The notes: generated by a model from the letters alone, not told the origin. DNA of 64,000 nt from Psammoneis japonica (GCA_008632985.1 QPGO01000033.1:124001-188000); one strand, 5' to 3'. Positions 12,694-50,588 are shown, numbered from the stretch's first letter. Program-made: numbers and translations.

Positions 12694-13500
12694 TCACGAA
12701 CATGTTTCTGAATATTTTGCATCAACGTTAAGTGTCCTTTTTCTCGTCATTGTTGCCAGTGGGTTAGAGCTGACATTGTCGCCGTAGGATTTGCCTTGAT
12801 GTTCCCCTGGTGGATAGCGCAGTTTATCGAATTTGAACGATCCTCCTTCGTCAAGCACTTCTAGCTGCTCTTGATGCTTGATGCGATGCTGCTCACAAAC
12901 TGGAATGCGTGCCGGTCGAGCAAGCATTGTCTTCTCCACAAGTGCTTGCGTAAATTCTGCAGACTTTATTTCGTATTCGAGTGTGCGTTCCTCGATACGA
13001 TAATTGCTGCTGTGCGTGTGTGATGATCCGTCCCGCCGCAGTGTTAAAGTAACTTTACATGACACAGAAAGAATGAAAGACTGGGCAAGAGGCAAGGCCA
13101 CTTCCCATGAAGCCAACACACAAAAATGCTAGTTGATCTGTGTGAAAAGAAGTAGACTGAAACCTGAGCGAGTCGGAGGGCAAAGCGAATGCATGCCTTT
13201 ATGAAGCTTCGAAGTACAACATGAGCATTCTTAGTGCCTGTCCCCGCCATCAGAGACCATGCCATCATGACGGTCATAAGCGCAAGAAGTGAAGTGATTG
13301 TTCCAAGGCAGAGAAACAGACCTGCCCAAAATGCAACACTTTGCCAATCCTTTTCTCCCAATGCAATGCGCACATTGTCGATTGGTTCTGATGGCGAGAA
13401 CAATGCGACGAGCCGTGAACCAATCATGAGCGTACACATGGTTGTGAGGGATGCAAAGCATTGTGTAAGAAGCCTTTAGAGCTTTTGTGCATCTCACTTG
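12694..13500 (-). pseudogene. Disrupted multi-TM hypothetical host gene at the edge of the hypermutated block
   Basis: Overlapping ORFs 13044-13439 (FWAGLFLCLGTITSLLALMTV) and 12694-13119; TpA content falls progressively towards 13.5 kb. Confidence 0.45.
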
Positions 13501-13725
13501 CCCCAGCTCAAATGCTGGTGCCAAGAGTCAGACTGATCAACGTGCACTGAAAGATCCATCACTTGTTTGGCCATGGGAAACAAATGAGCACACCGATGCC
13601 GCACTTTTCCGGTGTTGTTCTCACTTTGTTGATGCATTTTTGGTTCACACCTTTCATGCAGCTTCTCATGTGGCTAAGTGTTCCAGGTTGGTGGGAGTTT
13701 GAAGCTGACATGCCAATGACATCTG

Positions 13726-14400
13726 ATGTTTGACATCGAGACGGACGAAGATGCCAGGAATGTCACGGGCTTGCTGGAAGCATTGCCCGAGACAGCTCGT
13801 GTTGTTGCAGGTGGTTTCACTTTGTTGCACTGTGCTTGTTGCAACCACTTCTTGAGCCTGGAGATGATTCAATTTTTGGTGAATCTCTTTCCACATGCAC
13901 TGCAATGTAAAAATGGAAGCAAGGCGCCCCCTTTGCTTTTGGCATTCAACAACAGCTCAATCTCCCTGGATGTTGTTCAGTTCATGGTTGAGAAATGCCC
14001 ACAGGCACTGCTGTAGAAGAAAAGGCTGGAGGTTCCGGCAAATCCATTGAAAGTGCTGAATTTTGCCATGCACTTGGTGAATCAGCACCCAAATGCACTG
14101 AGTCATGGAGACAACCTGGGGTTGACTTGCCGTTGCATTGTGTTTGTGGAGATGAATCCACTTCCCTGCAGGTCATCGCCATTTGTTGGATTGGCACCCC
14201 AGTGTGTTGAAACAGAAAAATGACCACACAGGATGCTGCCTTGTCATCCTCTTTGTGTTCAGTCCTGGAAGGACATTGAGCACCATGCAAACATCCTCTG
14301 CCACCTCCTCCATCCATCCCTTTCTAGGTTTTTCCAACTGTGCAGTCTTTGGAGCCCAAAAACAGTCCATGAGACTGACCATGGGAGCTTGCATGATGCA
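13726..14400 (+). pseudogene. Decayed ankyrin-like (LPLH-repeat) gene
   Basis: TLLHCACCNH.LSLEMIQFLVNLFPHAL, SLDVVQFMVEKCPQAL, DLPLHCVC..SLQVI; contains stops and frameshifts. Confidence 0.6.
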
Positions 14401-17400
14401 CCCCTGGTCCCAAACTTTCTGTGCCCCATCTGTCATGCATTGAATTTCAAAGGTTGATCCTTGAATCCATTGTCATCTGCAGTGTTGCAGAAGCACCCCT
14501 TCTTTGAACATGGGTGCACCGTCACATGCCACTGGCCACTGCTTGGGAGAGAGCCAAAGCCAAAAAGAAGTGAGGGCCCTTGTCGCAGCCCTGCCAAAAG
14601 CTGTTGAGCACTTGGGCCAGGGTTTCAGAGCCAAGATTGCATCAAGCGGCAAGGAAGAAAGAGGAGGCTGATCATGCAACCCCTGAAGATGCCCACTTGC
14701 ATCCCTGCACTGTCAACAACAGAGCCGGCACAAGGCTTCAACCCAGGCCCCGCTGTTCTCCTGATGCAGGTGGTGGCAAAATGATTGTGCAGTCCGTCAA
14801 CACACCACACCAATTGAGAGCAAGGGTGCACAGGAGCCATGGTGCCCACATTGATGCAATCTGCTTGTCATGCAACCTGAGGGGGTGGGCAGCCCAGGCC
14901 ACCATCACCAATGGCCACATCAGACACAATCAACAAAAGATCAATCCAACAAGAGCAGGGAAGGCACCATTGCTGAGCAGGCAACCACACAGCTGTTGCC
15001 AATGAAAGAACCCAAGACAAGCTGGTGCTGGAGCTCAATGCATGTCACCAGGAGTTGCACGTTTCAGCACCTGCTTCCAAAGAAGTTGCCTGGGTGACAA
15101 GAAACACCTCCACAGGGACAGTCAGAATGTTGAGAAAGACAAGGGGAGCTGTGTGCCCCACCCAACCTGTCCACAGCCTTGTCAACCAGTCCATTAGAGG
15201 AGAAATGCAATGGAAACCCCATGCCAGCACCAAAACCTCATCTGGGGCAAAACTGTTGTGTGAAGAAGTGCAAGCCACAGGGGATTGGTGGGTGTGTTGG
15301 GAATGCCACAGGATGGAACAAGCTTCCCAGGTGCAACAGGTCCTCCTCCAAAGAAGACTTGGGTTGCCAGAGCTGTCAGGAGATGAAGCAGGATCTGGCC
15401 CTCTCTCATGTCATTTCTTGTTCTCCAGGGGCTTCAACTGTTTTGTAACATCCTTGAGAGTTCATTGTGCAACTGTTGATCTCAACATGTTCTGAGTGGT
15501 CCCCACAAGCCTGAGCAGACTTTGCTTCCATGCTGGCACATTCTCTGCCTTCTCTGCAAGAGCCCCAACCATTCCTTGGAGCTCCATCACTGCCTCAAAG
15601 CCTGAGCTTGTTGCCCTGAGCTTGATGCACTTAAAGGAGCCACAGAGGGGGGGGGGGGGGGGGGGGGGNAACCCCAATGCTGTGCGCTGCTTGGCATCAC
15701 ATCCTGGGTTTTGAAGACTGGTGCCCACAAAACATGTGACTGTGCATGCTTGATCTGGGTTGCCTCCCACTGTGGAAGTGAACACACCCAACTGAACTTT
15801 CTCAGGGTCTTCAAAGATCCCATGAACCAACCTGGCAGTGATGGACCAGGCTTGCTTTTCCAAGAACTTGCCAAGCTTTGTGAGTGCAACATCAGCAAGG
15901 ATTTTGATCTCAGCACTTGCAGTCCTCCCATCTGAGATGGCAGTGCTTCTTGGCGCCAGCATTGTCAGAGGTCCAATGGGACTGTTCATGGGTGGGCACC
16001 TTGTCCAAATGGGATGGGTGGAGCCCAAATGCCTGTGCAGACTTGGTTGAGCCCAAGTCTGGAAGCTGGGACATTCTGTGCTGAAAGCCCGCCAAGATCC
16101 TGGCATTTTTGTCATTTGCTTCACCCAGCCAGAAAGAAAATGATGGAGGGCTGAACAAAGCTTGGCTCCCATGATGCCATCTGAGAGCAGGTTGACATCA
16201 GCAAGGCAACTGCAGGTGCAAGGGACAAGAAGTGCTGTGCCATCCGCGATGCCTTGCGCTCACCTGAGCAAGACCCCACTGCCCCCAAAACCTTGATCAA
16301 CAACTTGTCAGATTTAGCTTGAAGCTCACTTTTGTGCTGTGGTCCAGTGGTGTGAGGCAAGCATCAACTGAATGAGAGTGCAAAGGAGCTGATCCCAGTG
16401 CTGCTGCCTGCACATCAACACTAGATTCTCACACTTCAAGAGACAGCACCTTGTTGGGCAGTTGACTGTTGACTGCTCTCACAAAGCACTCCACTCTTGA
16501 GGGAGTCCATGTCTGACAAGTGAGAGGCAGCAGCACTCTGTCTTTAACCCTTGCCAGGAGGGTCTCACACACAGCTGCTTCCTTGCATTCCATCAAGGAA
16601 GCTCTGAACTCATCCTCTTGGTGGGGCAGCCCTCTCCTTGCTGTTTTTTTTTCAGGACTGGGAATTTCTGGCACCACCCCAATCTACCAGAATTTCAGCA
16701 GTGGACTCTCACTTGACTGCAACACACATTGACAGAAAACCACCATCCAGAGTTGGTTGACAGAGAAGCCCACATCCAGTGTTTTGAGGATGGCCACCAA
16801 CCACTGTTCAAAAGGTTGGAGTCCCCCACCCCCGCCCTTGTGCTTCACAGTGCACACTCACCTGCCTTCTTGACACAAAATGCAGCATGCCACATTGGCC
16901 CCTTCTGGCCAAACGATGTGACAACAAGGCAGAGGAGATGAAGGAGACACACCTTCCTCCTCCTGCCTGGCTGCAGCCCCCCCCCCCCCCCAAATGCTCC
17001 TGCTCCACCAGATCCAAAAAATGTGTCCCACACATGCAGGGTGGTCTTGGCCATGCTGGCCACATGATGACTGACACACCACTGCAAGTTCACCAATGGC
17101 TGGTTGCAAACAAGTGACCATGCCCTGTTTCACCTGCTTGATGTCTGCTGGGAGATCACCAAAGCCAGAAAGACTGCCACCAACACTTGAGCCCTGAACC
17201 CAGGGTGTTTCTGCTGTGACAACCCCCTGAAGATCCATCCTGGGAGGGTGGAGGAGAGGAAGATGGTGAGGAACCCAATGAGAGCAGCAGAGAAACCACA
17301 TTGGACCCAAGTTGATGAGCACATCATTGTTGAGACCAGAAGTGAAGCAATGAGACACAATGACAAGAGAAGCAAAAAAAGAGGTCCTTTTCCAAAAAGC

Positions 17401-17633
17401 TTCAGTGTGATCCAGTCACAGTGAACAGTGTTGTTCCTGTTCCAGCAAAGCTGAAAAAGTGAGAAGAGAAAAATTGAACCATGTTTTGACAGGTCACAGA
17501 AGACTGAAGACCCTGACGGGTCAGCTTGATTTGTGTTTGGATGTTGAGGTTGCTGCTGTGGTGATGTGAGGGGTGGGGTTGAGGCAAGGCAGTCATGCGC
17601 TCTGGAGAGCAGCATGCATTGCACCCACTCCTC

Positions 17634-17825
17634 TGTTTGAGTCTGTCCATCATTGGATGGATGCAGTGGCTGACGCGTTTTTTGGTTTGCTTTCCAGAAA
17701 CTAAGAGACTTTGGAATGATGTCTGTGACATTCTGAAGATGTCAGTGGAAGACCAAGAGATCTGCTTGAGGATCCTCTCACAATCTGAATGGATCACATT
17801 TTGTTGTTTTGTTTTGTTCTTGTCA
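17634..17825 (+). repeat. 5' LTR (internally deleted relative to the 3' LTR; 3' end approximate)
   Basis: Aligns with 24607-24865; begins TG and ends CA. Confidence 0.85.
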
Positions 17826-17842
17826 AGTCACTTTTGGCACTT

Positions 17843-17852
17843 CATCAGAGCC
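17843..17852 (+). promoter_or_regulatory. Primer-binding-site remnant (tRNA-iMet type)
   Basis: CATCAGAGCC just downstream of the 5' LTR; canonical (TGG)TATCAGAGCC with a TA->CA change. Confidence 0.55.
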
Positions 17853-17873
17853 ATCCTCCAGCTGTCTGAGACT

Positions 17874-20800
17874 GTGGCATTCACTGCAGCACAAACCACC
17901 TCTTTTTTGAGGACAACAACCAGATGGGTTTGCCCTGTGCAACACGTGAGCAGTTGGCAGTTGAAGGATTGGAACAGGTGAACAACCTCGCCGATTTCAA
18001 CAAAGATGGTCTCAACCAAGTCTCACAGAACCCCAAGCATCTGGGAGGCACTGTTCCAGATCCCAACCCTGGTGCAGCTGCTGGAGCTGTCATTTTGACA
18101 CCAGCATTTGTCACAGGTGCCAAGAGCATGATGCATCTCAAGGTCACCAGGCAAGCAGTGCAATTCTACGAGAGTGTTGGTTGTGAACTGTTGGCTGCTG
18201 ACATGCACTGGAGCCCAGTCCTCAGGAACTTTCAAGAAGCTTGGAAGGCACCGAAGGGCAGGAAGGACAAGGATGACCCCAAAGTTCCAAGGATCTCCAA
18301 GTCACTTCCTGTTGTGAAGTGGACCAAGGCTTTTTGTGACCACCTGCAGCATGCAATCGGAACTTGGGTTGTTTGACTTTCATGCGTCACTTGGGAGATG
18401 GTTGATGTTGATGCGGCAGCTCCTGCACCGGACACAAGTAAACCCCACTTGGATGAACATGGTTCACTCAAAGACAAGCTTGTGGCTTGAGCCAGTCATG
18501 CTCATCCTTCATTTTGAGAGGACAATTCTGCACGGTGGACTGTTCTTTTTGGAGGAAGCAACCTCTGGAACCTCACACACAGCTTCAATCAAGCCATTCC
18601 AGTGTGGGAAGGATGGAAGGGGTGCATGGATTGCACTGACATCACAGTGTGCTGGAGAGGACAAATGGGTGGCTGAACTCAAGAAACAGGAGGAGTTCAT
18701 CCACAATCGGAAGTGGAAAGCTCAGTCCAATTTTTCCCTTGATCGATTTGTTTCTCAGCATTGCAACAACTTCATCTCCATGCAACAGTGTGCTGAATGT
18801 GTCACCTTCCAACTGCCCAATGAATGCACAAGGGTCACACACCTGTTGGATGCAATCAAGACCTCCGATGCTCCACTGCAGGCTGCCATGGCCCTGGTTT
18901 GCAACAACATGGGACAGAATGGCAAATGAAGTGATTTTGAAGCTGCTGTGGCCCACATCTCACCATGCAATCCTGTGGCAAAGAAGCAAGCTGCAAAATG
19001 TCCACACACTGAGGTGTCTGGCATTGACTCCAGCAACATCAAGTCAGGTGTTGGAAGACTGGTGTGGAGCTTTGACACCACACCCATGCCAAGTGTTGCA
19101 AGTTAGAGGCTGAACAGAAAGCTGAACTGAAGGAGTGGCAATCAGCACGGAGGGATCTTCTGCTGCAAAGAAAAGGGATGGAAAACCTGAGTCACCTGCC
19201 AATGGTTCACAGAAGAAGATCAAGAAGATGATGTTGGAAGCTGTGGCCTCCAAGCCAGCTTTCAGGAAAAGGCTGAAATTGAGTCCAAAGATGTCAAAGC
19301 AGGTGCCCACTTGCTCTCCCTTGTTCAGGCGGCATCGTGCACACAGACTCCAGCTCCTCCTCTTCCCTGCCCCCATCCACCACCACCTGTGGCTACAACG
19401 GCTCCAGCTCAGGCCACGTCAGTTCAGTTCAAGCCACCCTTGGTTTTGTTGCAGTCAATCTTGCGGCATGCCAGGACCAAGAAATGAAACGTTGGGATGG
19501 TGCTGCATTTCAATGTCTCTCCACTTGAGGGGAGAAAATGTGCCATCTGTGTCATGGAATTGCAGTTGTTGATTCCCAATTGTTCTGTTCTTAGATTTGT
19601 TGATCACCATGCAATCTCTGATGTCACTTCAGAAACAATCAAAGAGACTCAAGACAAAAGTGGGCATGCACCAAATTGGACTCCCACGCCAACATGGTTG
19701 TTGTTGGAAGAAGCTTGCACACGTCCCAAATGACACCGGTCGCACCACTCAAGTCAGTCCCTTCAATCCTGAGTGTGAACTGATGAAGGACATCAGAGTT
19801 GTTGATGCCCTGCTGGCGTGTGGCTGCCTGTGCTCTCTGAAAACACATTTGCTGGTCTTGCACAACACTCTTCATGTTCCAGCAATGGACCACAACCTGC
19901 TTCCACCCTTTGTGCTGCACCAGGCAGGGGCAATTGTCAACAATGTTCCCAAGATGCAGACAAGGGGGAGGGAGCCTGTGGAAGATGACCATGCTCTTGC
20001 ATTCCCAGAGACAAAGACAAGGATCCCATTGTCACTCTGGGGTGTGTTTTTGCACTTTCCAACCAGATGTCCTGCGATTTAGGAGATGCAAGATGCTGAT
20101 GACGTCCTGGCTCTCACTCTGTCAGGACACTCCTGGAACCCTCACTCAGATTCCCATGCTTGCAATGAAGAGAGCATGTTGGGTTGGGCAGGAAACATGT
20201 TGGACAAACAAGACTGAATCAGGATTTTGGTCAAAGACCCACCTGATGAAGATGAGGGTCTCCAACTGTCCTCTGTGGTGTCAAGTGTTGAGTGATCATC
20301 GACTCCAAATTGCTCCTTGTTGATCACTTTGAGGCTCGTGACGACTTGAGTGGATGCACAGGTGTCATCCGGGAAGCTGACAATTCCCGTGCGGTCATGT
20401 GTGACATTTTGGCCACTCTTGACCCTGTCTCACTTGCTGAAGACTTGCAAGATCAATGTGACATTGGGGTTTTTGCAGCCTTGGCAGGATCTACAAGGAT
20501 GTTGATTTTGACATTTTTGAGGATGTTCAACTTGAAGACATTGTTGAAGATCTCATGGAGCATTTTGAATCTAGTCCTGAGATCCAAGTTGGGGGAACGA
20601 CTGCACCCAGATTGAAAGGTGCATCTCCAGAACACTTGTCCAAGATCTGGAGGATCAGCACCAAGGATGCAAAACTGACCATTGGCAACACCACCCAACT
20701 TCTTCGATGCTCTCACAATCCTGCTCTCTCAAGGAACTGTTCCACGAATGACAGAATGCTGCAGTGCCGTCAAACTGCCCAGCAGTTCTTTGTGGATGCG

Positions 20801-23800
20801 TTCTCTGCAAGCAAGAAGGCTGGCAAGTCAACCAGAGGGTGTTTCTGCATGCAACTGTTTGTCGCTGACAAAGGATTCATGCATGTGGTGCCAATGCGTG
20901 CCCGCTCTGAGATTCCACAGGCACTCAAGATGTCTGCCAAGGAAGTGGGTGCACCGGATGCGCTCATCTGTGACAGAGATTTGGCACAGAAGTCTGATGA
21001 GATTTGCCAATTTCTTTGTTCTATTGGTGCTGATCTTTGGTTGCTGGAAGAAGGCACACCATGGTCAAATTGTGCTGAACTCTACATTGGCTTGCTCTAG
21101 GAAGCAGTGCGGAAGGACATGAAAGAGTCCTCATGACCTTTGCCATTTTGGGATTGCTGCTTTGAACGATGGGCCCACATCAACAACTTGACAGCTCGAA
21201 ACCTGTTTCAACTTGAGGGGAGGAATCCACATTTCTCTGTGACAGGGGAGGAGGGTGACATCTCTGACCTTGCCCAGTTTGGATGGCATGAATGGTGTCA
21301 TTTTTGAGATCACACCAACCCTTTTCCATTTGATCATGAGGCCCCAGGACGTGTGCCAGGTCCTGCGAAAGGTGAAGGAAATTAAATGGCTCAATGGGTG
21401 CTGAAAGGGAACAGCAATGTTGTCCCACAACATCCAGTGCAACCTCTGTCCATTGCCAAGTTAAACAGCATCACAGAGAAAAGCAAGCGCAAGATTTTTG
21501 ACCAATGCATTGAATCGCACTGGGGCTCTGCTGCTTGCCAGGTGTCCTCCACCGGCAAACAATTCATTCCGCATGAAGACAAAGATGAAAAGCCAAGAGA
21601 CCTCCCTGATTTTGATGACCCAGCCAATGCCTCTGGGAATGCCATTGACCCAACACCACTGTGCGACAAGCCAGTTCACTCTGAAGTCGCCTTGCCCGAA
21701 GGTGACAAGATGCAACAAGCTGAAGTTGTTGGTCATGTTGTGGATCCTGATGGTCAGTTGGTCGGCACATGCAATGACAAGCTGATCAAGAATGCCTTGG
21801 TCTGTGAAGTCGAGTTTCCTGACAGGGAGGTGAAAGAATGCGCTGCCAATGTCACCGCGGAGAACTTGCTCTCTGAAGTTGACTCTGAAGGCCACACTCT
21901 CAACATTTTTGACAGCACACTTGATTTTGCCAAAGACCACACTGTGGTGACCAAGGACAACATGTGTGCCAAAGTTGGCAAACACAAACAACTGGGCAAG
22001 ATGACATGCGGTTGGAAATTCCTCATGTTGTGGAAGGATGGGACCGAGTCTTGGGTTTCACTCAAGGACATGAAGGAATCACATCCAGTGGAGACTGCAG
22101 AATTTGCAAAGGCCAGAGATGTTGATGATGAACCAGCTTTCCAATGGTGGATGCCATGCACTCTTCACAAGCAAGGTGTCATTGTGTTGGCAGCCAAGGC
22201 ACGTGTGAGACGTGTGACACACAAATGTGGTGTCAAACTCCCCAACACTGTGGAGGAGGCACTTGAACTTGATTGTCAGAATGGCAACAAACTGTGGGCA
22301 CTGGCAATTGAGAAGGAGATGCATGATGCGGGTGTGGCATTTGAGATCTTGGGCAATGACGCTGCAACTCCTGTCAGCTGGTCCAAGCAATCAGGTCACT
22401 TGGCATTTGATGTCAAGATGACCTTGGCCAGGAAGGCTCGATGGGTCCCAGATGGACACAAGACTTCCAAACCTGAAGGCTTGAGACGCTCGCTGGAGTT
22501 GTGTCAAGGGAAAGTGTGCAAGTCACTCTGACTTGCGCTGCTTTGAATGACATTGACATCATGGCAGCTGACATTCAGAATGCATGCTTGCAGGCTCCTT
22601 CATCCCAGAAGCACTGCGTCACATGTGGCCCAGAATTTGGACTCAAAAATGTGGGCAAACATGCTCTTGTTTGCCGTGCTCTGCATGGTGGCAAGTCAGT
22701 GGGACAAGACTTTTGGAACCACCTGCATGCTTGCATGTCTCACCTTGGGTTCAAACCTTGCAAGGCTGATCCTGATGTGTGGATGCGTGAGGCGCTCAAG
22801 GCTGATGGCACTGAGCACTGGGAGAGCATGTGTTCTTCTTCACACAGATGATGTGCTGTGCATTTCAAACAATGCTGAAGAGATTCCACAGAAGGAAATT
22901 GGCACAAGTGCTTCCCATTGAAGGAACCATCAATCAGACCACCAAGTCTGCACCTTGGCAGACACCTGCAAAAGGTGGAGCTTGAGAATGGTGCCAAGGC
23001 ATGGGCACCCAGCTCCTCGCAGCACACCCAAGCATTGGTTGAGAATGTCGAAACCCATCTGGATTCAAAGGGCGTGAAACTCCCAACCTGGGCCCCCGCT
23101 CCACTTGGCAACTCTTGTCATCCAGAGCTTGACATGAGCAGAGAACTGTCCTTGACTGATGCTGCTCATTGTCAGTCACTTGTTGGTGTGTTGCATTGGA
23201 TGGTTGAGCTGGGGCGTGTCGACATTTGTCTGGAGGTGTCCATGATGTCATCGCGTTTGGCTTTGCCATGAGAGGGACATCTTGATCAGGCACACCATGT
23301 CTTTGCACACCTCAAGAAGCACCACAACACCAAGATGGTGTTTGATCCCACCTGCCCCACCATCAATGAAGCGCTGTTTGCATGACAAGACTGGATGACT
23401 TCTGAGTTCAGTCTTGCAACCACGGAGGAGATGTCTGCCGACATGCCTCAAGCTTGAGGTCTGGGTGTGATCCTTTGTGCCTTTGTCAATGTGGGCCATG
23501 CAGGTGACTCAATTGCTTGTCAGTCTCACACTGGCTTTCTCATTTGCCTGAATTCTGTGCCTGCTTGTTGGTTGTTCAAGAGGCAGACGAGAGCATTGAG
23601 ACAAGCTCAGTTGGGTCAGAGTTCACCAGCATGAAGCAGTGCACAGAGCACATTCATTGGCTTTGCTGCAAGTTGCAAATGATGGGGATCCCAGTCAATG
23701 GGCCAGCACATGTCTTTGGTGACAGCCAGTTGGTGCTGGCGAGCACCTCCATCCCTGACTCAACGTTGAAGAAGAAATGTCACAGCCTGGCTCACCACTT

Positions 23801-23900
23801 CGTGCACGAAGGTGCGGCTCGAGACAAGTGGTGAACGGCACATGTCAACACACATTTGAACCCCAGCAATCTTCTCACCAAGGTGCTCCCATCAGGGGAG
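17874..23900 (+). pseudogene. Decayed gag-pol of the copia element
   Basis: Fragments 17924-18929 (gag), 19597-20082 (PR), 20555-21100 (IN), 21386-23271 (linker/RT), 23517-23834 (RH); many TGA stops and frameshifts. Confidence 0.9.
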
Positions 23901-24127
23901 AAGCGCAATCGGTTTGTTTGAATGACCCTGCACTGTCTTGGAGGGAAGGTGGAGCAGGCCATCTTGTTGAACCAGCCACCTGCCTGCGCGGAGGGTTTTG
24001 TTTGGAGCTCCCTGTCGACGGAGTGGGTTTTTGTCTGGAGTTCCCCACTTGATGGGTGTTTGTCAGAAATTTGCCATTGCATGATGACGACTTGTCCCTT
24101 TGCATGCAATCTAGCTTGTTGACTTGT

Positions 24128-24575
24128 GCAGCATGCATGCAGACAAAAGGTCATTTTTGTCACGCCCTTTGTGACATTTAAAGGCTGTGACACGTCGCCG
24201 TGATGCATTGGCTCTCATTGGCAGCTGCACATTGCACTCCTCCCCATGTGTCACGCGTCCATGCGGCTCTTTGCCAACGTGTGCTGACACTGCACGGTTT
24301 TGGCGGAACAGTGTGGGTACGTGCGAAGGAACACACAGAACTGCACAGAGTTTTGCGCGTTCGACAGTGATCAACGTTGCTGCAGACAACTCCCACTCAG
24401 GGTTTCGAACCCCTGGCCTCCTGCCTGATGGTTGCGATGAACCACTCCGCTGTGAATTCACAACGCAGCATGCATGCAGACAAAAGGTCATTTTTGTCAC
24501 GCCCTTTGTGACATTTAAAGGCTGCAACACGTCGCCGTGATGCATTGACTCTCATCAGCAGCTGTGCATTGCACT
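24128..24575. repeat. Two 111-bp direct repeats (24128-24238 and 24465-24575) flanking a ~225-bp core
   Basis: Near-identical copies starting GCAGCATGCATGCAGACAAAAGG; four differing sites, three of them TG<->CA. Confidence 0.92.
24391..24460 (-). ncRNA. tRNA-derived Pol III head (SINE-like or tRNA pseudogene)
   Basis: Minus strand: A box CAGCGGAGTGG (24452-24442; consensus TRGCNNAGYGG with T->C) and perfect B box GGTTCGAAACC (24411-24401) inside a CAGGG/CCCTG stem; 30-nt spacer. Confidence 0.65.
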
Positions 24576-24598
24576 TGACCAATTCTCTAGAGCAGATT

Positions 24599-24606
24599 GA
24601 GGGGAG
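24599..24606 (+). promoter_or_regulatory. Polypurine tract
   Basis: GAGGGGAG immediately before the TG of the 3' LTR. Confidence 0.8.
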
Positions 24607-24865
24607 TGTTTGAGTCTGTCCGTTGTCGGATGGACACACAGTGGCTGACGTGTTTTTTGGCTCGCTTTCATTCCAGCAGAAAACTGCTGTGTGTGCTCCA
24701 GAGAGCAGCAGCAGAGTCTGCCGTCACTTGCCAATGCTGTAAATAAGACTTTGGAATGATGTCTACGACACTCTGAAGACATTGGCAGAAGACCAAGAGA
24801 TCCACTCCAGGATCCTCTCACAATCTGAACAGATCACGCTTTGTCATTGTTTTGCTCTTTTAGCA
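24607..24865 (+). repeat. 3' LTR (3' end approximate)
   Basis: Follows the PPT; aligns with the 5' LTR. Confidence 0.85.
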
Positions 24866-25060
24866 CCTCCAAACAAAGATTCTGTGGGTCCATGCTCATT
24901 GGGCGGTCTTGCTTCAAGCAAACCGGTGAGAAAGCAAAGCGAGCAAAGACAACATCACATTTTACTCTTTTTGCTTGATCTCCTGCCGGCACCCATCGCA
25001 ACTCAATGAGCCATCTGAAACGCTGCTCGCAGACCAGTCTGCTGAAAACTGGGGCCTGCA

Positions 25061-26468
25061 ATGGGGAAGAAAAAGAAGGGAAGCGCCAAGAAGAAAACGG
25101 ACACAAGCACTCAAGACCCCGCAGTCGCACTGGACCCAAGCTCCTTGGAATTGTGCAACAAAGCGTGTGGACACATGCAAAAGACACGTCAACACTGGGA
25201 TGCGATTGAAACCCAGGTGAACAAAATTGAAAGACAAGCGCTTCATTTCATGCTTCGAAAAATCATGGCTGCAGCGAATTTTTTCGAAGAGAACACATTT
25301 GGCCAACAAATCAAAGGTGTTCATTTGTGCACATTTCATGATCTGCTGGAGGCGATTGACGTTGATGGAGAGTCGTTGTTTGACGCCTTTCGGGCACGTG
25401 CCGCATGCTTGGCTGGACTTCGCACTGTTTTAGACGCAGAACAAAAACAGGACATAAGCTGGATCAAGGAGGAGGTGAAAATGAGTCGAGAATTTGTCAA
25501 GGTGCTGGCGAGAGAGGAAGAAGTTGCTGGAGGCCTTCACGAACTGTTTGAACAAAATGGAGACACCAGCGCACAAGTTGTTGTGCTCTCAATCTTTTCC
25601 ATCGTCACTGAGACAACAATGGCTTTTGTGGAACCACAAGAATCTCGACCTGCGAACAACAAGCTGGACCGTGCCCTGCTCGAGAAAACTGCTCAGCAGC
25701 AATGTCCCGACGACTTTTGCAAAAACAAACTCGATGCCACCAGAAAGCACAATGCAGCATCCGAACAGTGGGCTCAAATTGACTGGAAAACTCCAGGCTC
25801 AGTCAACATGTGGCACACCTGCGAAGCCCACATGTGCAACCCTCATGTGCCTGTCTCCTCGCGGAACGGACCCACCCACTGTTGTCGTTGGATGTTGCGC
25901 AAGTCGCTTGTCAAGGATCTGGAACCATGGCCGAAGCACTCCGAGCAGCTCCCGACCTCCATCATAATTGGTCTTCAGACTTGGCGGCATCGCGATTGGA
26001 GGCAATGCTTGATTCCCCGTGCACCACCGAAGACTGCAGTTTCCACAGCACGATCATGCACCTTGGAGAGTGCGCCAAACAGCAGGGCAACACTGCGTTT
26101 CGAAAAGGTGACATTTCAACCGCACTTGAATGCTGTGCTCGTGCCGCTGGATTAGTCCACTGGATTGGACACCAAACAAAGCCATCTACTTGAGCAAAGC
26201 TGCCCAGTGCTTGCTCAAACTTGAACAATGCGAAGCAGCTGTCCGTGCCTGCACTTCTGCCATCCAGATAGATTCGAACAATTTCAAGTCGTGGCTACGG
26301 CGCAGCATTCAACGCGCCATGTCTACTTCCGCAGGACTTCAGCTGAGCGCTGAAGAAAAGCAAAAGAATGAAGCACGTCTCATGCAATTACGCAAGCGAA
26401 TGTCGCCGGATAGTGCCTGCGACGCCTTGGCCCGTGTCTACAATTACTTGGCAACGATGGCGAGTTAG
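25061..26468 (+). pseudogene. TPR-containing host gene, TpA-hypermutated and frameshifted
   Basis: MGKKKKGSAKKK start; 364 aa with no Tyr; TPR segments KQQGNTAFRKGDISTALECCARA and AIYLSKAAQCLLKLEQCEAAVRACTSAIQID. Confidence 0.7.
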
Positions 26469-32660: not shown

Positions 32661-33058
32661 TGCGCACGATTGTAAGGGGGGGTTAATCTCTTCTTAGTTC
32701 ATTAGGTTGAAACTTGTGCCGGTGCGAGAAGAGGTTTGGCCAAAAGATGATGAGAGTACGTGTCCCTGCGGCTTCGCTCTGCTGTGGTGGACAAAAAAAG
32801 TGAGATCGGCAAACTCAAAAAGAAGAATTGACGAAGATCAGTACGAGGCATCGTAGGTTTCTACGTAATAATTGTTTGAAGTTTGAGTCGTGGCTAGTTT
32901 TGCGGTGAAAAAGAGCTCGAGCGTCCGAAAGCGCAAGTGTCAACGTGACATCATGATGACGAGAGGCAGCTGTTGGATCTTCTTTTTTCCATCGTTTTGT
33001 GTTTTGCGTCCGAAATGGTAATAAAACGCAAGGCCGTACCAGCTGCTACCACCTCACC

Positions 33059-34121
33059 ATGAGACAAGAACGCCCAAGCCCAACCTCTATGGAGGGTATG
33101 ATCTGGAATGGTAAGTGAACGATGCAGCGGCGGAGTGCTTGAGAGATCTGAGTGGGAGACGAGAGGCGCCGTCATGCAACTGCCTTCCATCCCCAAAAAC
33201 CGTGACTCACGCATCCGCCCCCGCTTTTGCTGACAGCCAACCACATTCTCGAAAAGGCCTGAATCCTGTAAGTGAGATCTAATAAAATCTGTGACTGATT
33301 GATGGTTGTCATGAAAAACTAAATCCGGTAATTTTCTTACGTCGACATCGGCTGCTTCCATCTTATCGCATAATCCGAACTCTGATACTTAGAACATCAA
33401 TGGACTCCCCAAGTCTCTCTTTGACAAGTGCGTTGGCGTCGTAATTCTCAACGCCGTCCAAGCCGGACTTATATTCTCGGGAACCGTTGGCAGTGGTATT
33501 GCCATGAAGAAAACGGCGACCGGGTGGTCTCCTCCCTGCGCTGTCGGGCTCGGTGGCTTTGGCTTTGGACTTGTGGGTGGCGTTTCTGCTACTGATCTTG
33601 TCTTTTTCATCATGGACGACGAAACCATGAAGTCGATTGTCGCTGATCATGGCTTTAGCTTTGGTGCTGATCTTCAGCTTGCCATTGGGCCGTTCGGCAG
33701 ATCCGCAGAGGTCTCTGACATTATTGGAAACGGCGAGCTCGGCGCAGCCTTTGCCATTGCCTACTCCAAGGGTCTCTTTGGAAGTTTTCAAGCCAAGGGT
33801 GCCAAGCTTGGTGTTCGTTCGTTTGTCAACAACAAGTTCTACAACAGCACCGCTTCTGGAACAGACATTTGCTTCACTCCTGGAAGTGTCAAAGTCCCTG
33901 AAGGCAAGGTTACCATGCTCCAAGAGGTGTATGACAAGCTCAACAAGTGTGCTGCCGGACTTACCGCCGAACCCGATGCCGCTGAAGAATCCAAAAAGGA
34001 AGCCGCCAAGGAAGCGGCTGAAAAGGAAAATTCGGTCATCAAGAGCGCGCCTGAAGCCGAGGTCGTTGAGGTGCAAGATGCTGTGGATTCCGAGGCCGCC
34101 AAGGAAGCCGCTCATGCTTAA
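33059..34121 (+). CDS. SYLF/Ysc84-domain protein (copy A; 1-bp deletion in exon 2 creates TGA)
   Basis: Exons 33059-33110, 33237-33267, 33393-34121; GLIFSGTVGSG, WSPPCAVG, DLVFFIM, GPFGRSAE, YSKGLF. Confidence 0.85.
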
Positions 34122-37100
34122 TGCATTGCATGAGAAGCATTTTTTTTATTCATATGAAAGTAAATTTAATATGTTGTGGTGATTGAATGTTGAAGAATGA
34201 TTGGCAAAAGGATGCATCAAGTGGGATCGTCTAGTGACTTTAGGATTCTACCTGTACGTCTTTACTAAAACCTGTGTTTTAATACACCTTCAAGGACATG
34301 TTATTTTTGCAACAGGAATCACCAAACCAAAATGGTCATAATCCAAAGTACAGCAAAATCATTTTTTCGATTTTCTCAATAACCAATCTAAAGGGAAAAA
34401 ATGTTCTCTTGCTTATGGGCTTACTACCGTGCCACACCATCCTCGAGTTGGTGGTGCTGCAGCCTCCGCTGGCACAGTGTGTGTCAAGCAAGAGGACCCC
34501 ATCGTGGCCAGAGCTTGATTGTTGGGTTTGGGATGCTCCACACCACATGTCGGAGCATTTGCAACATGGAAAAAAATGGCCACTGCATGACAGCAGCTGG
34601 CAATCGGAACACCATCACCAGCAGCACAAGAAATTGGCAGCAACTGAAAAAAGTGGCCATTTGCCAGAGAAATGAGCTGTCTGGACAAACATCACTTCTT
34701 GAAAAGGCGATTGCACGTGCTTGAAATGCAAACAGGATTTTTTGCTGATGAGCAGAGGAAGAGACAGAGATGTGACTAAGGAGACATTTAAATTGTGAGA
34801 CTGCTGGTGAGTGATTTGGCTTGATGTGTGGGGCTGCAATTCTTTTGCCGACAGCCCCCACCTTGGGCCCCTGAAGGCACCCCAGCAAGAAAGTTGTCAC
34901 CCTCTCCAGCAATGCAATGAAGTGCACTGCCAAACCTGCCACCACTGGAAACCACACAATTTCCCCTGCCCTGACCCGCCCCTGTGCCACTTGCTCAGGG
35001 CCTCCAAAAAAGACTTCAAAATGGCATCACTGTGCTCATCATCAACAGCCATCAGAAGACTGCAGGAGATCAGATCAGTTCTTTTGCAGATGCCCAGCAA
35101 CAAGAAGATTGTTGAAGAGAGTCGGATTTCTCTGGGAGGCAGTCAGATGTGTTGGTGGTCAGTCCATGACACAGCAGGCACAAATGTCTTCAAAGTTCAC
35201 ACTGCAAACAACACTTGCCAGCTGGTCTGGTTGTGTCAGCCAGTCAATCACAGAGACTGATTGTTGTGGTTGCAGCCTGGACCTGCAGCATGATGAGTGC
35301 TTTGCAGCCTGGAACAACCATGAAAAAATTTTGGACTGTCAAATGGCACATCCAAGCAAACAAGAGCAGGATCCATGGTTTGTTGACAGAAGAACAGCAT
35401 TTCAAGTTGGTCTTAAAATTTCTCCTGGAAAAGCCATTCTTGAGACATGGAGACCAGCTTGAAAATGTGATGGATGAACCAATTGAGAAGATTGCAGCAA
35501 TGGTGGCATCTGAGCATCACGTGCTGTCCTGCATCCTGGTGCCAATGAAGGGTGTTGCACAGAAGTTTCACTTGATGGCAATGGCAAAGGTGGTCAAGCA
35601 ATGGGCAGCAGAGCAATTGGCAGCAAAACAATGGGATGAGGAGGGGAATGGAAAGTGGCAGTTTCAGTGGAAGTGTCAACAGCATGACCGTTCCACCTCT
35701 TCACAGATGTGTGCATGTGAAATCTGGCAGACAAAACCACTTTTTCCTGTTGTTGGAGAACAAATGACAACACCCCCACTGCAACATGTTTGCAACTGAA
35801 AACAGCAATTAAAATGTCTTCAACTCAAGTGGAAGATCAGGATCAGTGGGAGCCAAATGCCAGCTCTCATGCTTCTTCCTCATCACTTCTTTCTTGGCCA
35901 AGGGGGGGGGGGGGGTCACTGCAACAGATCCACTTTCTGACAGCTGTCTCTGCCTTTTTCAGGTCTTTGCATTTTTCAGTCCACCATGCCTTTTTCCAAA
36001 GAGAGCTTGTCTAGATTCTGATGCACTTTTTCTGCCTTTGCTTTGGTGAACATCTGTGCAACAGCTGGAGTGCAACAAGTGCCAGAGCTTTCCAATCTGG
36101 CCAGACATTTGACCCCAGTTCTGGATGTTGTTGTCAGTGTCATCCTGCTCATTGAAGCCAATTTTAAATGCCTGGGTCAAAAGACTCCTGTCACACATGA
36201 GTGGGAAAAGCACAGTTGTTGTTTTTTGAAAATCTTTCTTCCATTTGACCAAAGACCTCGGGATCATCTTCCAGGCATGCCCACTGAAAACAGAGGTCAC
36301 ATGCAGTGAGAGTTGCACATGTCCAGAATTGGGAGAATGACAATGCAGCCGCCTCTGAAATCTTGAAATCCATGGCCAGAAATGATTTAGAAGTGGGGCC
36401 TCAGTGACTTCTTTGACTTTAAGCACACTGCAATGAATTTGCCAAAACATTCCATGTGTCCAGCTGGAAGCCAGCCAACTTTGGATTGAGCTGGGATTTT
36501 CTCAACCATTTTTTGGTGGCAGATCAACAAGGCTTTGATCAAGACAAAGAGAGACATTGGTGGCTGGCAGACCCCAAATGCACAGGGCCAATGCAAGGAC
36601 AAACACCTTCCAATGATTTTCAAGGCCTGTCTCACCACCATTGCTGCAAATCACTTGGCAAGTGGGCTCCTCAATCTCTCCATGGCTTACAAGCAAGCAA
36701 TTGCACCATCAGATCCTGCTCTGGAGACAAGTTGCAGACCCAACAAGTTGCAGCTGACTGACTGGGTTGGCAACGATGTCAAAGAACTTGATGTCAGCAG
36801 TGTCTCACAGAAGAAAACCATTGGTCATTTGTGTTTGTTTGTTTTGATGATGGTGCAATGCCCACGACTAAAAAGCACACTGGGAAAATGAGGCGCTGTG
36901 GTTGGTGGTCAGAAAATTCCATTTTTGTCTCTAAAAGATCAAATGGATCAGTTTTCAGTTGAACTGTGAGCGCAGCTGTGCTCAATTTGGGCTCCAAGCC
37001 AAGAGAGCTGCCATCACATTGACAATCTTTGGATGCTGTTTGCTTGCACCATGTCATCTCCGTTTGCACCATTGGAAACAAGAGGCCAAGAGCATGCTGA

Positions 37101-37544
37101 CAATGCAACAACAACTGCATTAAATGAGCAGGGCCACAGCCACATGGACCCAGTCTTCACCCAAGGCAGACATGTCTTGTTTTGTTTTCAATGCTTTGTG
37201 GGTCTGATCAACATTGACAGCAAACACAAGAACTCCCAACAGTGACAAGGTGGTGGCATCTTTGTGTCTTGCTTGCTGAACTCTAATTTGTCCCCCCATG
37301 CACTGGGCATCTAGAGTGGGGTTCTGAAGAAAGAATGTTGCAGGTGGCAAGAACGTGTCAACTGTGCTGGACCATCTAGATTGCTGTCATTCCAAGCATT
37401 TGAAGCATTGGTCATTGGCTGACAATCACTCCTCGACTTGTCCATGTTTGTCACAGTGGCAGTCGCCAAGGTTGCACACAATTTTCATGCACCAAAAACT
37501 GCGTGGACGGTGACCTGAACTGACCTTCACACATCAACAGATGA

Positions 37545-38065
37545 CAGCAATTGGGTGATCGCCACTCTGTTCTGTCACCCAAGTGCTGTGCCACATGATG
37601 GGACTCATGGTGGCAAACCACATCTTCTGGGATTTGTGTGGACTTGATGCAAGCCCTGACCTGATGGAATGGTGCAAAGGCAACTCCAGTGGGGCACTCT
37701 TGTGTCCTGCATGAGCGGGACTCATGACACACCCAACATCATTTTAAGCTGCAGTTTGCAACAGTTGCGTGCAAACCACAGCACGAAGAACTGAGTGCTT
37801 GGCACCGTGGGATGATGGGTGATGGGGTGCAAGCATTGGATGATCTGGCCTTTGTCCAGTGGTTGGTGCTGCAGCAATTGGGTGGTTGCCGCTGTGTTCT
37901 GACACCCAAGTGATTGATGCTGCACCACACAATGGGGCTCATGGTGGCAAGCCACATCTCCTGAGATTTGTGCAGGTTTGATGCAAGCCCTGATCTGACA
38001 GAATGGTGCAAAGGAAATTCCAGTGGGGCATCCTTGGATCCCACATGCATGAGCGGGACTCATGA
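37545..38065. repeat. Two diverged ~185-195-bp direct repeats (37545-37727 and 37872-38065)
   Basis: Both run CAGCAATTGGGTG...GAATGGTGCAAAGG...TGCATGAGCGGGACTCATGA. Confidence 0.85.
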
Positions 38066-39588
38066 GATGCCCATTTGACTGTCAGGCCACCTTGAAAGTG
38101 GGGGGCAAGGACAGACCACTTCTCCGGAGCCTCGCGCACACATTTCTTGGGCCAACCAACGACCTTGGAGATGCAAGCCTCAGAAGACCCAACTGCATTC
38201 TCTGAGGCCATCCCCTCAGAGCTCATCAGTGTGGCCACCCAAGGGCTCACAGGAGCAAGGCAGCATTCTTTTGCTGAGCACTGGTGCTGGTGGCTTGTGT
38301 GGCAGCTTTGGAGATCCCTCTGCTTGCACTGTGGCAATGGTGCTGAGGGCTGAGTGCTGCCAGCAGCCATGGTGCATTCAACTGTTTTCTTCCATTGAAG
38401 AGAAAAGTTCCCACACTGTCCTTTGGATGTGAGTTTGAGATCTGTCAGTGCCAGACTTGGCATTGCATTGATGGGTTTAGTGGGCTGTGTCTTTTTGCCA
38501 CTTTGTGTCAGGAGGTTGTGCATTGCACAGCAAGTTTTCTGGTGATTTGGTGGGAGCAGGGTGTTGGAATTTGCATGGAGGAGCTGCATTGATGTGCAAG
38601 GTGCTGGTTTTGTTGATGTGTTTGACTTGGGTGTTGTCTGCTGTTTGAGGCAGAACATGAGCAGATGGTCTGAGACAGGTGTGCCATGGTCTGGGTGTGT
38701 GATGGCACACACTGGCGGTGGCCACATTTGGCTGGTCACATTTCAAGGAGAGATCATTGTTTGCAAGGTGGCCCACTTGGGGGGGGGGGGGGCATGCATG
38801 CCTTTTTTGATTCTGACATGCACCCAGCCATTTTGTGGGCAAGTTTGCATGACAGTTTCTTTGATCAATCCATGTGCAAGTGAGGGTTCAGTCAACTTTG
38901 GATTTTGGAACAGATTTGACAGCATCCTCTGTGCCTTTGATGTGGTTGCTGACACCTTGGGATGCACTGCAAATTTTCTCAGCAGAGAACCCTGCTTTTG
39001 GGTTTGGCGAGTGGTTCATCACAATTTGTGGATGCTCAAGTGCTGGGGTCAACAACAGCTCCTGCCCACGGTGAGTCAGAGACAGTGTGTTGTGTTGTTG
39101 ACTCAACTCAACACAACGATTGCTGGTTGGCACCAGTGCCCTTTACAGACTTTGGCCCCTGATGGACCCAACCGGCTGGGGTGCAGAACTCCTTGGAGAA
39201 AAGTTCCAGACCGGCATCTAAGAAACAGAAATGGAAAAAGAATGTTTTGCGATCGTGCTCAACCCGAAGTTGAGGAGCAACACCGTCAGTTGTCCAGTTC
39301 GTCGGATGACAACAGGTCCCTGGCACAGGTTGCTTCATTGTCGCCGGTGAAGCCGTCGGTTTTCCAGTCATGTCAAGCAGGTCCCCGGCACAGCTGATGA
39401 AAAAAGAGAGAGTCGCCAATCTACCACGATTGTCAGGAGTCAGAATGCTCCTGTGCTTGTGCCTCAACCTCCTGGTCCTGAGATGCACAACGACGTTTGG
39501 TTGGAGGTCTTACATTGTCGTCGTGATTGTTTGTCAGATCGAATTCCCGAATTCTGGGTTGACTGCATGCCCATCTGCGCAGCGCCGC

Positions 39589-48300: not shown

Positions 48301-48380
48301 CTCACATCAGTTTGAGAGGTTACTTTCTTGCTGGGTGAGGAGGCACCCTTGTGTTTGGTGCCGTTTTGCTTGTTGGCCAT
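45285..48380 (-). pseudogene. LINE ORF1
   Basis: 1031-aa ORF upstream of the APE; low-complexity N-terminus; probable compensating frameshifts at ~47.05 and ~47.8 kb; contains no Tyr. Confidence 0.75.
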
Positions 48381-50204
48381 GGTTGATTTTTGTTGCTGGT
48401 TTGCGCAGGTGCCAGCACTGAGTTTGTGTGGACTTTCCGGGTTGCTTTAGACGCTGATGCATGCTGGAAAAGTGCATGTTGTGTTGTTGTTTAAAAAAAA
48501 ACAAGGTCAAGAGCCAAACTCTTTGTTGGTTGGCATTGTTTGCAAGCAGTTGGTGTGCAACAGCATGATTGGCTCTGGGCTTGCTGCACCAGCAGGAGCA
48601 TTTTAACTGCTGGCATTGTCAAGCAGATTTTTTCATGCTCCACCCTCAGAAGTGCAGCATTGAAAATTTTGGACAATTGTTTGATGGCACTCAGCAAAAG
48701 GGGTCTTCAGAGTTGGGCATTTTAGTTCATCAACCAGTTTGTGTTTGCTGCACATGCTGTGGCTGCTGCATTGCTTCAAGAGAAAGTCATGTCAGCTTTG
48801 TGAAAAAAAAATGACAGTGCCAGCAATTTGTTCTTTGTGTGCTTTTGGAATGAATGCTTTGTGGCATGGAAAGCTCCAGGGTCATGGGTCCCCAGTGCAC
48901 TGGTGCCTTTGATCCCATGATGTGGGGCCCATGTTCCTTGTTGTGTCAGCTGTTCTCATGGTCTGTGCACACCATTTGGTTCCCCGGCGGGGTGAGCGGC
49001 ACTTTGTTGCAGTTGCACAGGGGACAGAGCTGGGTGTGTGCTGACAATGCTGGAATGAGCCTGGAGCTTCTGATTGTGTTGAAAGTTTGTGCTGCTGGGG
49101 ATGTCAGGCAGTGGTGCAAAAGGTGCAGTGTGGGAAATTTTTGTTCGCAGAGCAAAGGCCAGCAACGAAGTGGTTGGCTTTTTGAGCGTTTGGACAGCTC
49201 ATCCTGTGGCACTGCATGGTGGAACAAGCTGGCACACAGCCTTGCTGTCAGTCAGGTGTTCTTCCTTGCTTGAGCTTTTTTCAGGGTGCTTCATTGTCAA
49301 GGCAGCAATGCAAAGTCATCTTGGCTTTTGAGTCCCTGGGTTTGTTTTGCAGAAAAGTGGCTGCAGCAGAGTGCTGTGCTTGGAACATTTTGCCACATGT
49401 GTGATTTTGATTGACTCAACTGGGATGGCATTGCTGCAACAATTGCCAATGACAAGAAGATGTTTGCAGCCTCAGCTGGATTGGGCAGGGAAGTGTCTGG
49501 TTGAGCATTGAGGGCAGCGCATTGAGGGCAGCGCAATGGATTCGATCATCGGCACAGTGTGGCCGTCATTGCAACAATCAACAATGTTGGGACAGAAATC
49601 ATGGCACCATCTTTGGGGTCTTGGTTTGGGTGGAAGTCTTTGGAGTCAATTGCAGTGGTGCACACATGCTCTGGAGGTTCTTCCACCATTTGTCTGGACA
49701 TGTGCTGACCATGTTTGACAAAATCATTGTGCACCCTCTGACACACACCACACAAAAAAATTGTTGCGCACCTTCAGACATGGGGGAGTTCTTTTGACCT
49801 TGCAGCAAATCTCTCTAAGCTGAGCAAGCTGCACCCTCTGGTTCTTGCAGTGCATGTGTGGGGCTTGTGGACAGTGAGAAAAGAGAGCAGTCAAAGGCAC
49901 AAACCTCTCAAGGTCGATGAGCACAAAAGGGTGTTTTTCCCAGTGCCTGCACTGGCGCTGCCACACTGCACAAGCAAAATCACTCCTGGCTGGATGTGGA
50001 GCTTGTTCTGCAGCACCACCTGGTGTGAGTTCAACCACTTCACTGCCATCTAGTAGCTAGAGTCCATGATCCTCTTGTTCTCCAGAGCAAACTGGGGGAC
50101 AAAATTGCTGCGCTGATCCTTGCTTGTTACAAAAGGCCGACAAACTGACACAGACAGCTGCCGCCGATACAAGAAAAAATATATGTAGCATTTATCCCTG
50201 CTTA

Positions 50205-50513: not shown

Positions 50514-50588
50514 AATTAGAGCTCGTGAAAAATAAGCAGGGTTATCGGCAGTCGCGGCAGAGAACGAGAACGACCGTGCCACCTCACC

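Follow-up and report, generated by a model that had tools for sequence, protein, structure and literature searches.

The DNA analysed here is a stretch of 64,000 nucleotides, referred to as the window, which carries genes for an LPA1/Rep27-type photosystem II assembly protein, a CorA-like transporter, a Na/Ca exchanger, and a TMEM185-like protein outside two blocks that have lost nearly all of their 5'-TA-3' dinucleotides (TpA). Both blocks are transposon islands. Block 1 contains a copia element with long terminal repeats (LTRs), and block 2 contains a long interspersed nuclear element (LINE) nested in older debris. The few TpA that survive in them are biased by their neighbours: those with a pyrimidine (Y) before and a purine (R) after (YTAR) persist, whereas those of the opposite arrangement (RTAY) are almost gone. 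This bias was first noticed in an initial annotation of positions 13500-24865, and it is a detail of a larger feature, the two TpA-poor blocks themselves. The main features are the following.

13478-26268, unstranded: block 1, TpA-depleted and TpG/CpA-enriched, with 40 TpA in 12,791 bp; it covers 13500-24865
17590-17860, plus strand: putative 5' LTR of a degraded copia element, aligning with 24560-24880
19637-23912, plus strand: remnant of a copia (RVT_2) polyprotein with frameshifts and TGA stops, from a weak RVT_2 match and tblastn
22841-22852, plus strand: reverse transcriptase catalytic box, HTDD where homologues have YVDD or YTDD
24560-24865, plus strand: putative 3' LTR of the copia element, from the LTR-pair alignment; its end coincides with the end of 13500-24865
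34426-50050, unstranded: block 2, TpA-depleted, with 70 TpA in 15,625 bp; the context bias is replicated here
34426-39200, unstranded: older left arm of block 2, depleted in both TpA and CpG
39490-45279, minus strand: LINE open reading frame (ORF) with endonuclease, RVT_1, and zf-RVT matches by Pfam; span from tblastn of homologues P0157-P0170
48400-50050, unstranded: older right arm of block 2, depleted in both TpA and CpG

The blocks stand out clearly in dinucleotide composition. The ratio of observed to expected counts (O/E) in block 1 is 0.05 for TA, 0.28 for CG, 1.79 for TG, and 1.65 for CA, against 0.57, 0.99, 1.19, and 1.18, respectively, outside both blocks. In block 2 the TA value is 0.08, and TG and CA range over 1.45-1.79 across both blocks. 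TA and CG are the only depleted dinucleotides and TG and CA the only enriched ones, while AA, AT, and all others are as outside. The GC content is 0.50-0.51 in the blocks versus 0.47 outside. Moreover, the boundaries are sharp, being defined to tens of bases or less, and to a few bases in block 2; the right boundary of block 1 lies at about 26190-26268.

Within 13500-24865 (11,366 bp), 34 TpA remain, comprising 20 YTAR, 1 RTAY, 6 RTAR, and 7 YTAY. Outside both blocks, 1422 TpA occur in 35,586 bp, divided into 230 YTAR, 433 RTAY, and 759 mixed (377/382). The YTAR:RTAY odds ratio between the two regions is 38 (Fisher p = 1.5e-8; three-class chi-square p = 1.7e-10). Block 1 as a whole gives 22 YTAR, 1 RTAY, and 17 mixed sites among its 40 TpA, and block 2 gives 45, 3, and 22 among 70 (p = 1.3e-16). 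The bias is strongest in the oldest DNA of block 2, where 21 of 23 TpA are YTAR and none is RTAY. The central claim of the initial annotation, that YTAR is kept and RTAY almost eliminated, is thereby borne out. Its individual sites also hold: every CTAG that it named is present (14325, 16422, 20572, 21098, 24112, and 24588), and the lone RTAY is indeed the GTAC at 24318. When the NTAN tetramers are counted inside versus outside the blocks, as it had suggested, uniform survival is rejected (deviance 160, 15 degrees of freedom (df), p = 2e-26).

A pyrimidine-purine step stays a pyrimidine-purine step under transitions, and thus the totals of the flank classes are conserved and allow a normalisation independent of the composition of the host. 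By this measure, TA accounts for 4 of the 1502 R-YR-Y steps inside the blocks versus 433 of 1968 outside. For Y-YR-R steps, the corresponding figures are 67 of 1834 and 230 of 2023.

The flank dependence can be described by a Poisson model in which the survival of an NTAN tetramer is the product of one factor per strand, each determined by the base that follows the A on the strand concerned. This symmetric two-strand model fits the 16 tetramers (deviance 19.1, df 12, p = 0.087) with per-strand survival of 0.05 for TAT, 0.16 for TAC, 0.59 for TAA, and 0.61 for TAG, whereas a model with only one acting strand is rejected (p = 5e-15). Factors that include the second base, which are rough as they come from 110 survivors, are near 1 for TA followed by AA, AG, or GA, 0.13-0.34 for TA followed by purine and pyrimidine or by GG, 0.08-0.20 for TAC-N, and 0.004-0.08 for TAT-N. 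TA followed by AA, AG, or GA is practically immune, and the actual survivor class is YYTARR. Its density per kb is 0.70 and 1.54 inside the two blocks versus 1.21 outside, while all other TpA together reach 2.4-2.9 per kb inside versus 38.7 outside. Furthermore, the TAR factors are stable with age (0.59-0.71 in younger parts versus 0.54-0.61 in older parts), whereas the TAY factors drop from 0.24/0.10 in younger parts to 0.09/0.01 in older ones.

Repeat pairs date these changes to the time after integration. Three pairs inside the blocks, including the copia LTR pair, provide 488 aligned columns with 67 mismatches, of which 59 are transitions; 30 of the 67 mismatches form 15 adjacent TG<->CA swaps. 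Four duplicate pairs outside provide 3132 columns with 806 mismatches, of which only 379 are transitions (47%), and 6 swaps. The difference is significant for transitions (p = 2e-9) as well as for swaps (p = 2e-11). Such a swap is one ancestral TA (or CG) resolved on opposite strands in the two copies. The copia LTR pair alone shows 31 mismatches in 186 columns, with 28 transitions and 7 swaps, and as LTRs are identical at insertion, these differences arose later, in the chromosome. A clean small case of change at TpA only is the 111-bp direct repeat at 24126-24239 and 24463-24576, upstream of and inside the 3' LTR region. Its copies are 94% identical, all 7 differences are transitions, 6 of these form 3 TG<->CA swaps, and the CpG sites are intact in both copies.

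The same process can be read in the decayed proteins. Among the 43 columns with a Tyr consensus in the two elements, Tyr remains in only 2, and His or Cys has taken its place in 26. None of the 19 copia columns is kept (7 His, 5 Cys), and 2 of the 24 LINE columns are (8 Cys, 6 His). Tyr to His reflects a sense-strand T to C change and Tyr to Cys a sense-strand A to G change. The His:Cys ratio is balanced in both elements, although they lie on opposite strands (7:5 in the copia element on the plus strand, 6:8 in the LINE on the minus strand), and RTAR:YTAY is likewise balanced at 8:9 in block 1 and 9:13 in block 2; these two balances indicate that both strands were hit about equally. The process thus acted on DNA, after integration, on both strands, and through transitions only. 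Additionally, A to G changes at codon position 1 after T affect 11 of 122 Ile/Met/Thr columns (TAT/TAC context) versus 1 of 92 Lys/Asn columns (TAA context, p = 0.014), and retained codons following T number 0 of 70 for Ile/Met/Thr versus 5 of 71 for Lys/Asn (p = 0.058). The suggestion that the mutator favours TAY over TAA and TAG is supported by these position 1 counts, the Tyr columns, and the per-strand survival. Its extension to the catalytic YxDD box holds for the copia element, where YVDD or YTDD has become HTDD, but not for the LINE, whose box is FVDD in unmutated relatives too, so that nothing was lost there.

Tyr-poor copies also occur among public sequences. The copia span was set by tblastn of homologues of 1,165-1,422 amino acids from HMMER, which found 4190 relatives of the copia frame; the LINE had 14 relatives by word search. 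Among 150 representative public copia homologues, 8 (P0032, P0069, P0054, P0108, P0098, P0138, P0020, and P0078) contain at most one Tyr, where the median is 4.4%, and are richer in Cys and His. At the Tyr columns their residues are His or Cys, in combinations unlike those in the window and unlike one another's, and several keep their Arg columns. These homologues represent hypermutated copies from independent events elsewhere.

CpG is depleted as well, in 13.5-24 kb, 34.4-39.2 kb, and 48.4-50 kb, but its loss is a separate process. The sub-blocks at 24.2-26.2 kb and 39.2-48.4 kb combine a CpG survival of about 1.0 with a TpA survival of about 0.1. As CpG is intact where about 90% of TpA has gone, the two losses are distinct, and TpA loss is the faster. 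The two arms of block 2 together retain 23 TpA and 58 CpG. Arg columns are kept at 10 of 25 positions in the copia element and 56 of 79 in the LINE, and the copia Arg changes lead mostly to Gln, His, Cys, Trp, or stop, as CpG decay predicts. CpG loss in the older parts is most simply attributed to decay of methylated CpG, which accounts for the CpG O/E of 0.04-0.3 with a gain of TG and CA in the older sub-blocks. Such decay cannot remove TpA and is therefore not the source of the TpA loss. The flanks have only a weak effect on the CpG survivors (per-strand survival 0.34-0.60). A single ADAT2-like enzyme with a joint preference for TCG and TA was considered and rejected, given this weak 5' effect and the intact CpG where TpA is gone.

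Several further features accompany the two elements.

25046-26152, plus strand: gene-like ORF past the 3' LTR, with 369 codons and no Tyr; TpA stripped, CpG kept, and no Pfam family
26041-26468, plus strand: weak TPR-like ORF pieces across the right edge of block 1 (TPR_1 E values 0.019 and 0.044, below the cut-off), a lead only
45288-48446, minus strand: open frame of 1053 codons upstream of the LINE ORF, in the CpG-keeping sub-block 39200-48400

The stripping of TpA runs about 1.4 kb beyond the copia 3' LTR (24866-26268) and ends within the weak TPR-like pieces. Either it spilled over into adjacent DNA, or its limits are those of a chromatin domain and not of the element. Near the left edge of block 1, a frame at 13720-14013 gives a weak ankyrin-repeat match (E = 9e-5) and may stem from a captured host gene or from a mobile element. 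A run of about 22 G at 15647-15669, also in block 1, ends in the single N of the window and is probably an assembly join or a sequencing problem. In block 2, the LINE ORF nested in older debris is stripped of TpA and largely keeps its CpG. The 1053-codon frame next to it gave no Pfam family and no homologue in a word-based search, and may be open mainly since TAA and TAG codons were erased. These two stops are missing from all six frames of both blocks, which leaves TGA as the sole stop and long open frames on both strands. A Pfam scan of 173 stop-to-stop frames in the blocks returned only the weak RVT_2, RVT_1, zf-RVT, and ankyrin matches.

Repeated DNA is also found outside the blocks. A direct duplication at 33049-34121 and 50579-51691 (78% identity) flanks block 2 at 0.3-0.5 kb from its edges; its TpA content is normal and its substitution pattern ordinary, and both copies contain an ORF, about 250 codons long, that matches no Pfam family. 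A repeat family of 65-78% identity occurs in both orientations at 2.3-3.4, 4.2-5.9, 6.3-6.8, 7.7-8.8, and 9.2-10.4 kb, again with normal TpA. Thus, not all repeated DNA of the window is hypermutated. Self-comparison of the window in a purine/pyrimidine-collapsed alphabet added no repeats to those from BLAST.

The genes outside the blocks point to the host. All named relatives of the CorA-like protein are from diatoms (Synedropsis, Triceratium, Helicotheca, Ditylum, Attheya, Amphora, and Cylindrotheca) at 41-61% identity, and the closest Atlas clusters of the LPA1-like protein are mostly from Bacillariophyta. The leader of the latter ends at an Ala-Phe junction, which we take to be of the type used in diatom plastid targeting.

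We consider it likely that the TpA in both transposon islands were rewritten after integration by a flank-dependent process acting on both strands of the DNA, and that this was an adenine-deaminase defence. After integration, nearly every TpA underwent a transition: an A to G change on the strand read gave TpG, and one on the opposite strand, seen as T to C, gave CpA. Each strand was hit independently, with a chance of conversion of 5'-T-A-3' that depends on the bases 3' of the A. TAT is the most sensitive, followed by TAC; TA followed by purine and pyrimidine is intermediate, and TA followed by AA, AG, or GA essentially immune. A TpA therefore persists only if it is immune on both strands, that is, as YYTARR (e.g., TCTAGA or TTTAAA), and this two-strand immunity leaves YTAR in place while RTAY disappears. 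The data above establish the TpA depletion, the flank rule, the transition spectrum, the timing after integration, the action on both strands, and the independence from CpG loss; the agent and its role are less certain. The agent may be a sequence-selective DNA adenine deaminase (adenine to inosine, read as G) or an equivalent acting on the paired T. It may have been directed to chromatin that is silenced or foreign and so have defended the genome, as has been proposed for Bigelowiella natans. The initial annotation had taken the flank preference as a sign of enzyme specificity, and we can likewise only infer it.

The alternative that comes nearest places the attack on T, either as a modified thymine that mispairs with G or as one that is excised and misrepaired, with a preference of ATA > GTA >> YTA. 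The data are symmetric under strand complementation, and all flank statistics fit such an attack equally well. Nothing in the sequence speaks against it, and adenine deamination is only the more economical guess; still, we regard attack on T as unlikely. A much smaller chance is left for editing of retrotransposon RNA from A to I, by an ADAR-like or fungal TAD-like enzyme, before reverse transcription and integration. In favour of such editing, the two main elements are retrotransposons and the A that is replaced by G follows a U/T, but the TG<->CA swaps between the LTRs of one element cannot predate integration, both strands are hit equally, and the stripping extends past the 3' LTR into gene-like DNA at 25046-26190. 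Moreover, AA is untouched here and TAG is among the least affected contexts, contrary to ADAR and fungal preferences. In the available parts of the respective papers, ADAR accepts a 5' A too, with a preference of ADAR2 for a 3' G that is as strong as that for U (PMC11120146), and fungal editing favours A or G at +1 (PMC10027721). RNA editing is already contradicted by these observations.

It is equally improbable that TpA was erased without regard to context and that the YTAR sites are later new TpA, or were kept by selection, for instance as palindromic binding sites. CTAG and TTAA are palindromic, and the TG and CA precursors are abundant. However, TG and CA are the only one-step precursors of new TpA, whose contexts should mirror theirs: 27% YTGR plus YCAR and 24% RTGY plus RCAY in the blocks. 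The observed shares are 55-64% and 2.5-4% (chi-square p = 6e-5 and 1e-11 for the mismatch). The density of YYTARR is the same inside as outside, as immunity predicts, and selection is unlikely as the elements are dead, with frameshifts, stops, and loss of the catalytic Tyr. Error-prone repair synthesis of the polymerase-eta type at WA motifs (W, A or T), a preference known from the somatic-hypermutation literature, has in its favour that TA is a WA motif and A to G its commonest outcome. AA is not depleted, however, and with 59 transitions in 67 mismatches transversions are few, which makes this source slightly less probable still. Least credible of all is that the blocks were never mutated and are intrinsically TpA-poor DNA, horizontally acquired or made up of TpA-avoiding elements. 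Low TpA is indeed common in genomes, with an O/E of 0.57 in this host. Against this stand the Tyr columns that now read His or Cys, the YVDD box that now reads HTDD, the TG<->CA swaps between repeat pairs, and a signature common to two unrelated transposon classes and adjoining gene-like DNA.

Several points nevertheless weigh against rewriting by an adenine deaminase. The whole analysis covers one window. The enzyme is postulated from the signature in the sequence, by which A and T cannot be separated as the attacked base. Only one ADAT2 that edits DNA has a published motif, and in the accessible part of the relevant paper its preference is for GAA and not for TAY (PMC10354150). The ancestral DNA of the elements is represented by the sequence outside the blocks together with the conserved Y-R step totals, and the TAR survival of about 0.6 per strand could partly be a difference in composition rather than mutation. 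Numbers are small in the tests made on the products (11/122 versus 1/92). Tyr to His was predicted to occur mainly after a purine; the direction is right but the difference is not significant, with His:Cys at 10:6 versus 3:7 (p = 0.23), made up of 6:1 versus 1:4 in the copia element (p = 0.07) and 4:5 versus 2:3 in the LINE. Finally, the window is presumed to be nuclear DNA of a diatom or a near relative on the basis of homology.

The closest known case is that of B. natans (Mettrop et al., bioRxiv 10.64898/2026.01.13.699255). According to the available text of this preprint, TpA changes to TpG or CpA de novo in mutation-accumulation lines; the mutations fall in giant-virus and virophage insertions, where the rate exceeds the background about 1000-fold; 124 TpA-depleted clusters are found genome-wide, and an ADAT2 homologue is the candidate enzyme. 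In the window, too, TpA changes only to TpG or CpA by transitions, on either strand, and the changes are confined to mobile DNA, but with the overrun of about 1.4 kb past the LTR. The two cases differ, as far as the preprint text goes, in the host, which is a chlorarachniophyte (Rhizaria) there and probably a diatom here; in the extent, as the viral inserts there still hold thousands of TpA whereas the retrotransposons here are near saturation; and in the evidence, as the process was watched de novo there and is inferred from its end state here. The main text of the preprint does not contain the words 'context', 'flank', 'trinucleotide', or 'CpG', and hence the flank rule and the relation to CpG are not described in that text. 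A literature search, whose coverage left out most subscription journals, returned nothing further on hypermutation aimed at TpA, whether in diatoms or elsewhere. The kind of process is thus already known, and what is added here is a second, distant host lineage, saturated retrotransposons, the flank rule, and the separation from CpG decay.

Fungal repeat-induced point mutation (RIP) converts CpA to TpA through C to T changes and so makes TpA, AT-rich DNA, and stop codons. The process described here resembles RIP in that dinucleotide-targeted transitions arise in DNA after integration, destroy transposons, leave sharp skewed blocks, and can leak outward. Unlike RIP, it destroys TpA, enriches CpA, raises GC, and erases TAA and TAG stops with the formation of long spurious frames. 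With ADAR and APOBEC3 it shares deaminase-driven transition hypermutation of mobile elements as a defence. APOBEC3 targets C and acts on first-strand cDNA. ADAR and APOBEC3 act before integration, on RNA or first-strand cDNA, and mark one strand, whereas here the changes came after integration and on both strands. None of the traits of ADAR-type editing (action before integration, on one strand, with a tolerated 5' A and a favoured 3' G) is found in the blocks. The nearest known specificity is the U-A-C of TadA: in the available part of the source, TadA-type enzymes prefer U-A-C and recode Tyr to Cys (PMC10027721). The 5' T, absolute here, and the favoured 3' pyrimidine match the specificity of TadA and ADAT enzymes in part, and the Tyr to Cys recoding is similar. 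However, TadA as described there acts on RNA hairpin loops and needs UACG in Escherichia coli (PMC10027721), whereas here TAT is preferred over TAC, a G at +2 is not required, and the targets are both strands of chromosomal DNA. When acting on DNA, ADAT2 of amphioxus favours GAA contexts at A and TCG contexts at C, in the portion available of that report (PMC10354150).

The order TAT > TAC >> TAR, with YYTARR immune, is a rule that any candidate enzyme must reproduce in vitro, and it can be checked against the 231 de novo TpA mutations given in Table S2 of the B. natans preprint. The findings also serve as a warning for annotation: long frames free of Tyr are likely to be mis-called as genes, and such frames are already in public protein sets (8 of the 150 representative homologues). 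The single prior report is a 2026 preprint on one alga, and its end state in a diatom-like genome suggests that the process is not peculiar to one species. It is possible, though we put this forward only tentatively, that diatoms share the TpA-editing genome defence of the rhizarian B. natans, as an old system across the SAR group (stramenopiles, alveolates, and Rhizaria) with a readable recognition rule. If so, the system would be functionally parallel to fungal RIP, acting on adenine rather than cytosine. Its recognition rule (5'-T-A followed by a pyrimidine, or by purine and pyrimidine, with YYTARR immune) could guide the search for the enzyme; should this prove to be a natural adenine editor of DNA, it would interest builders of base editors.

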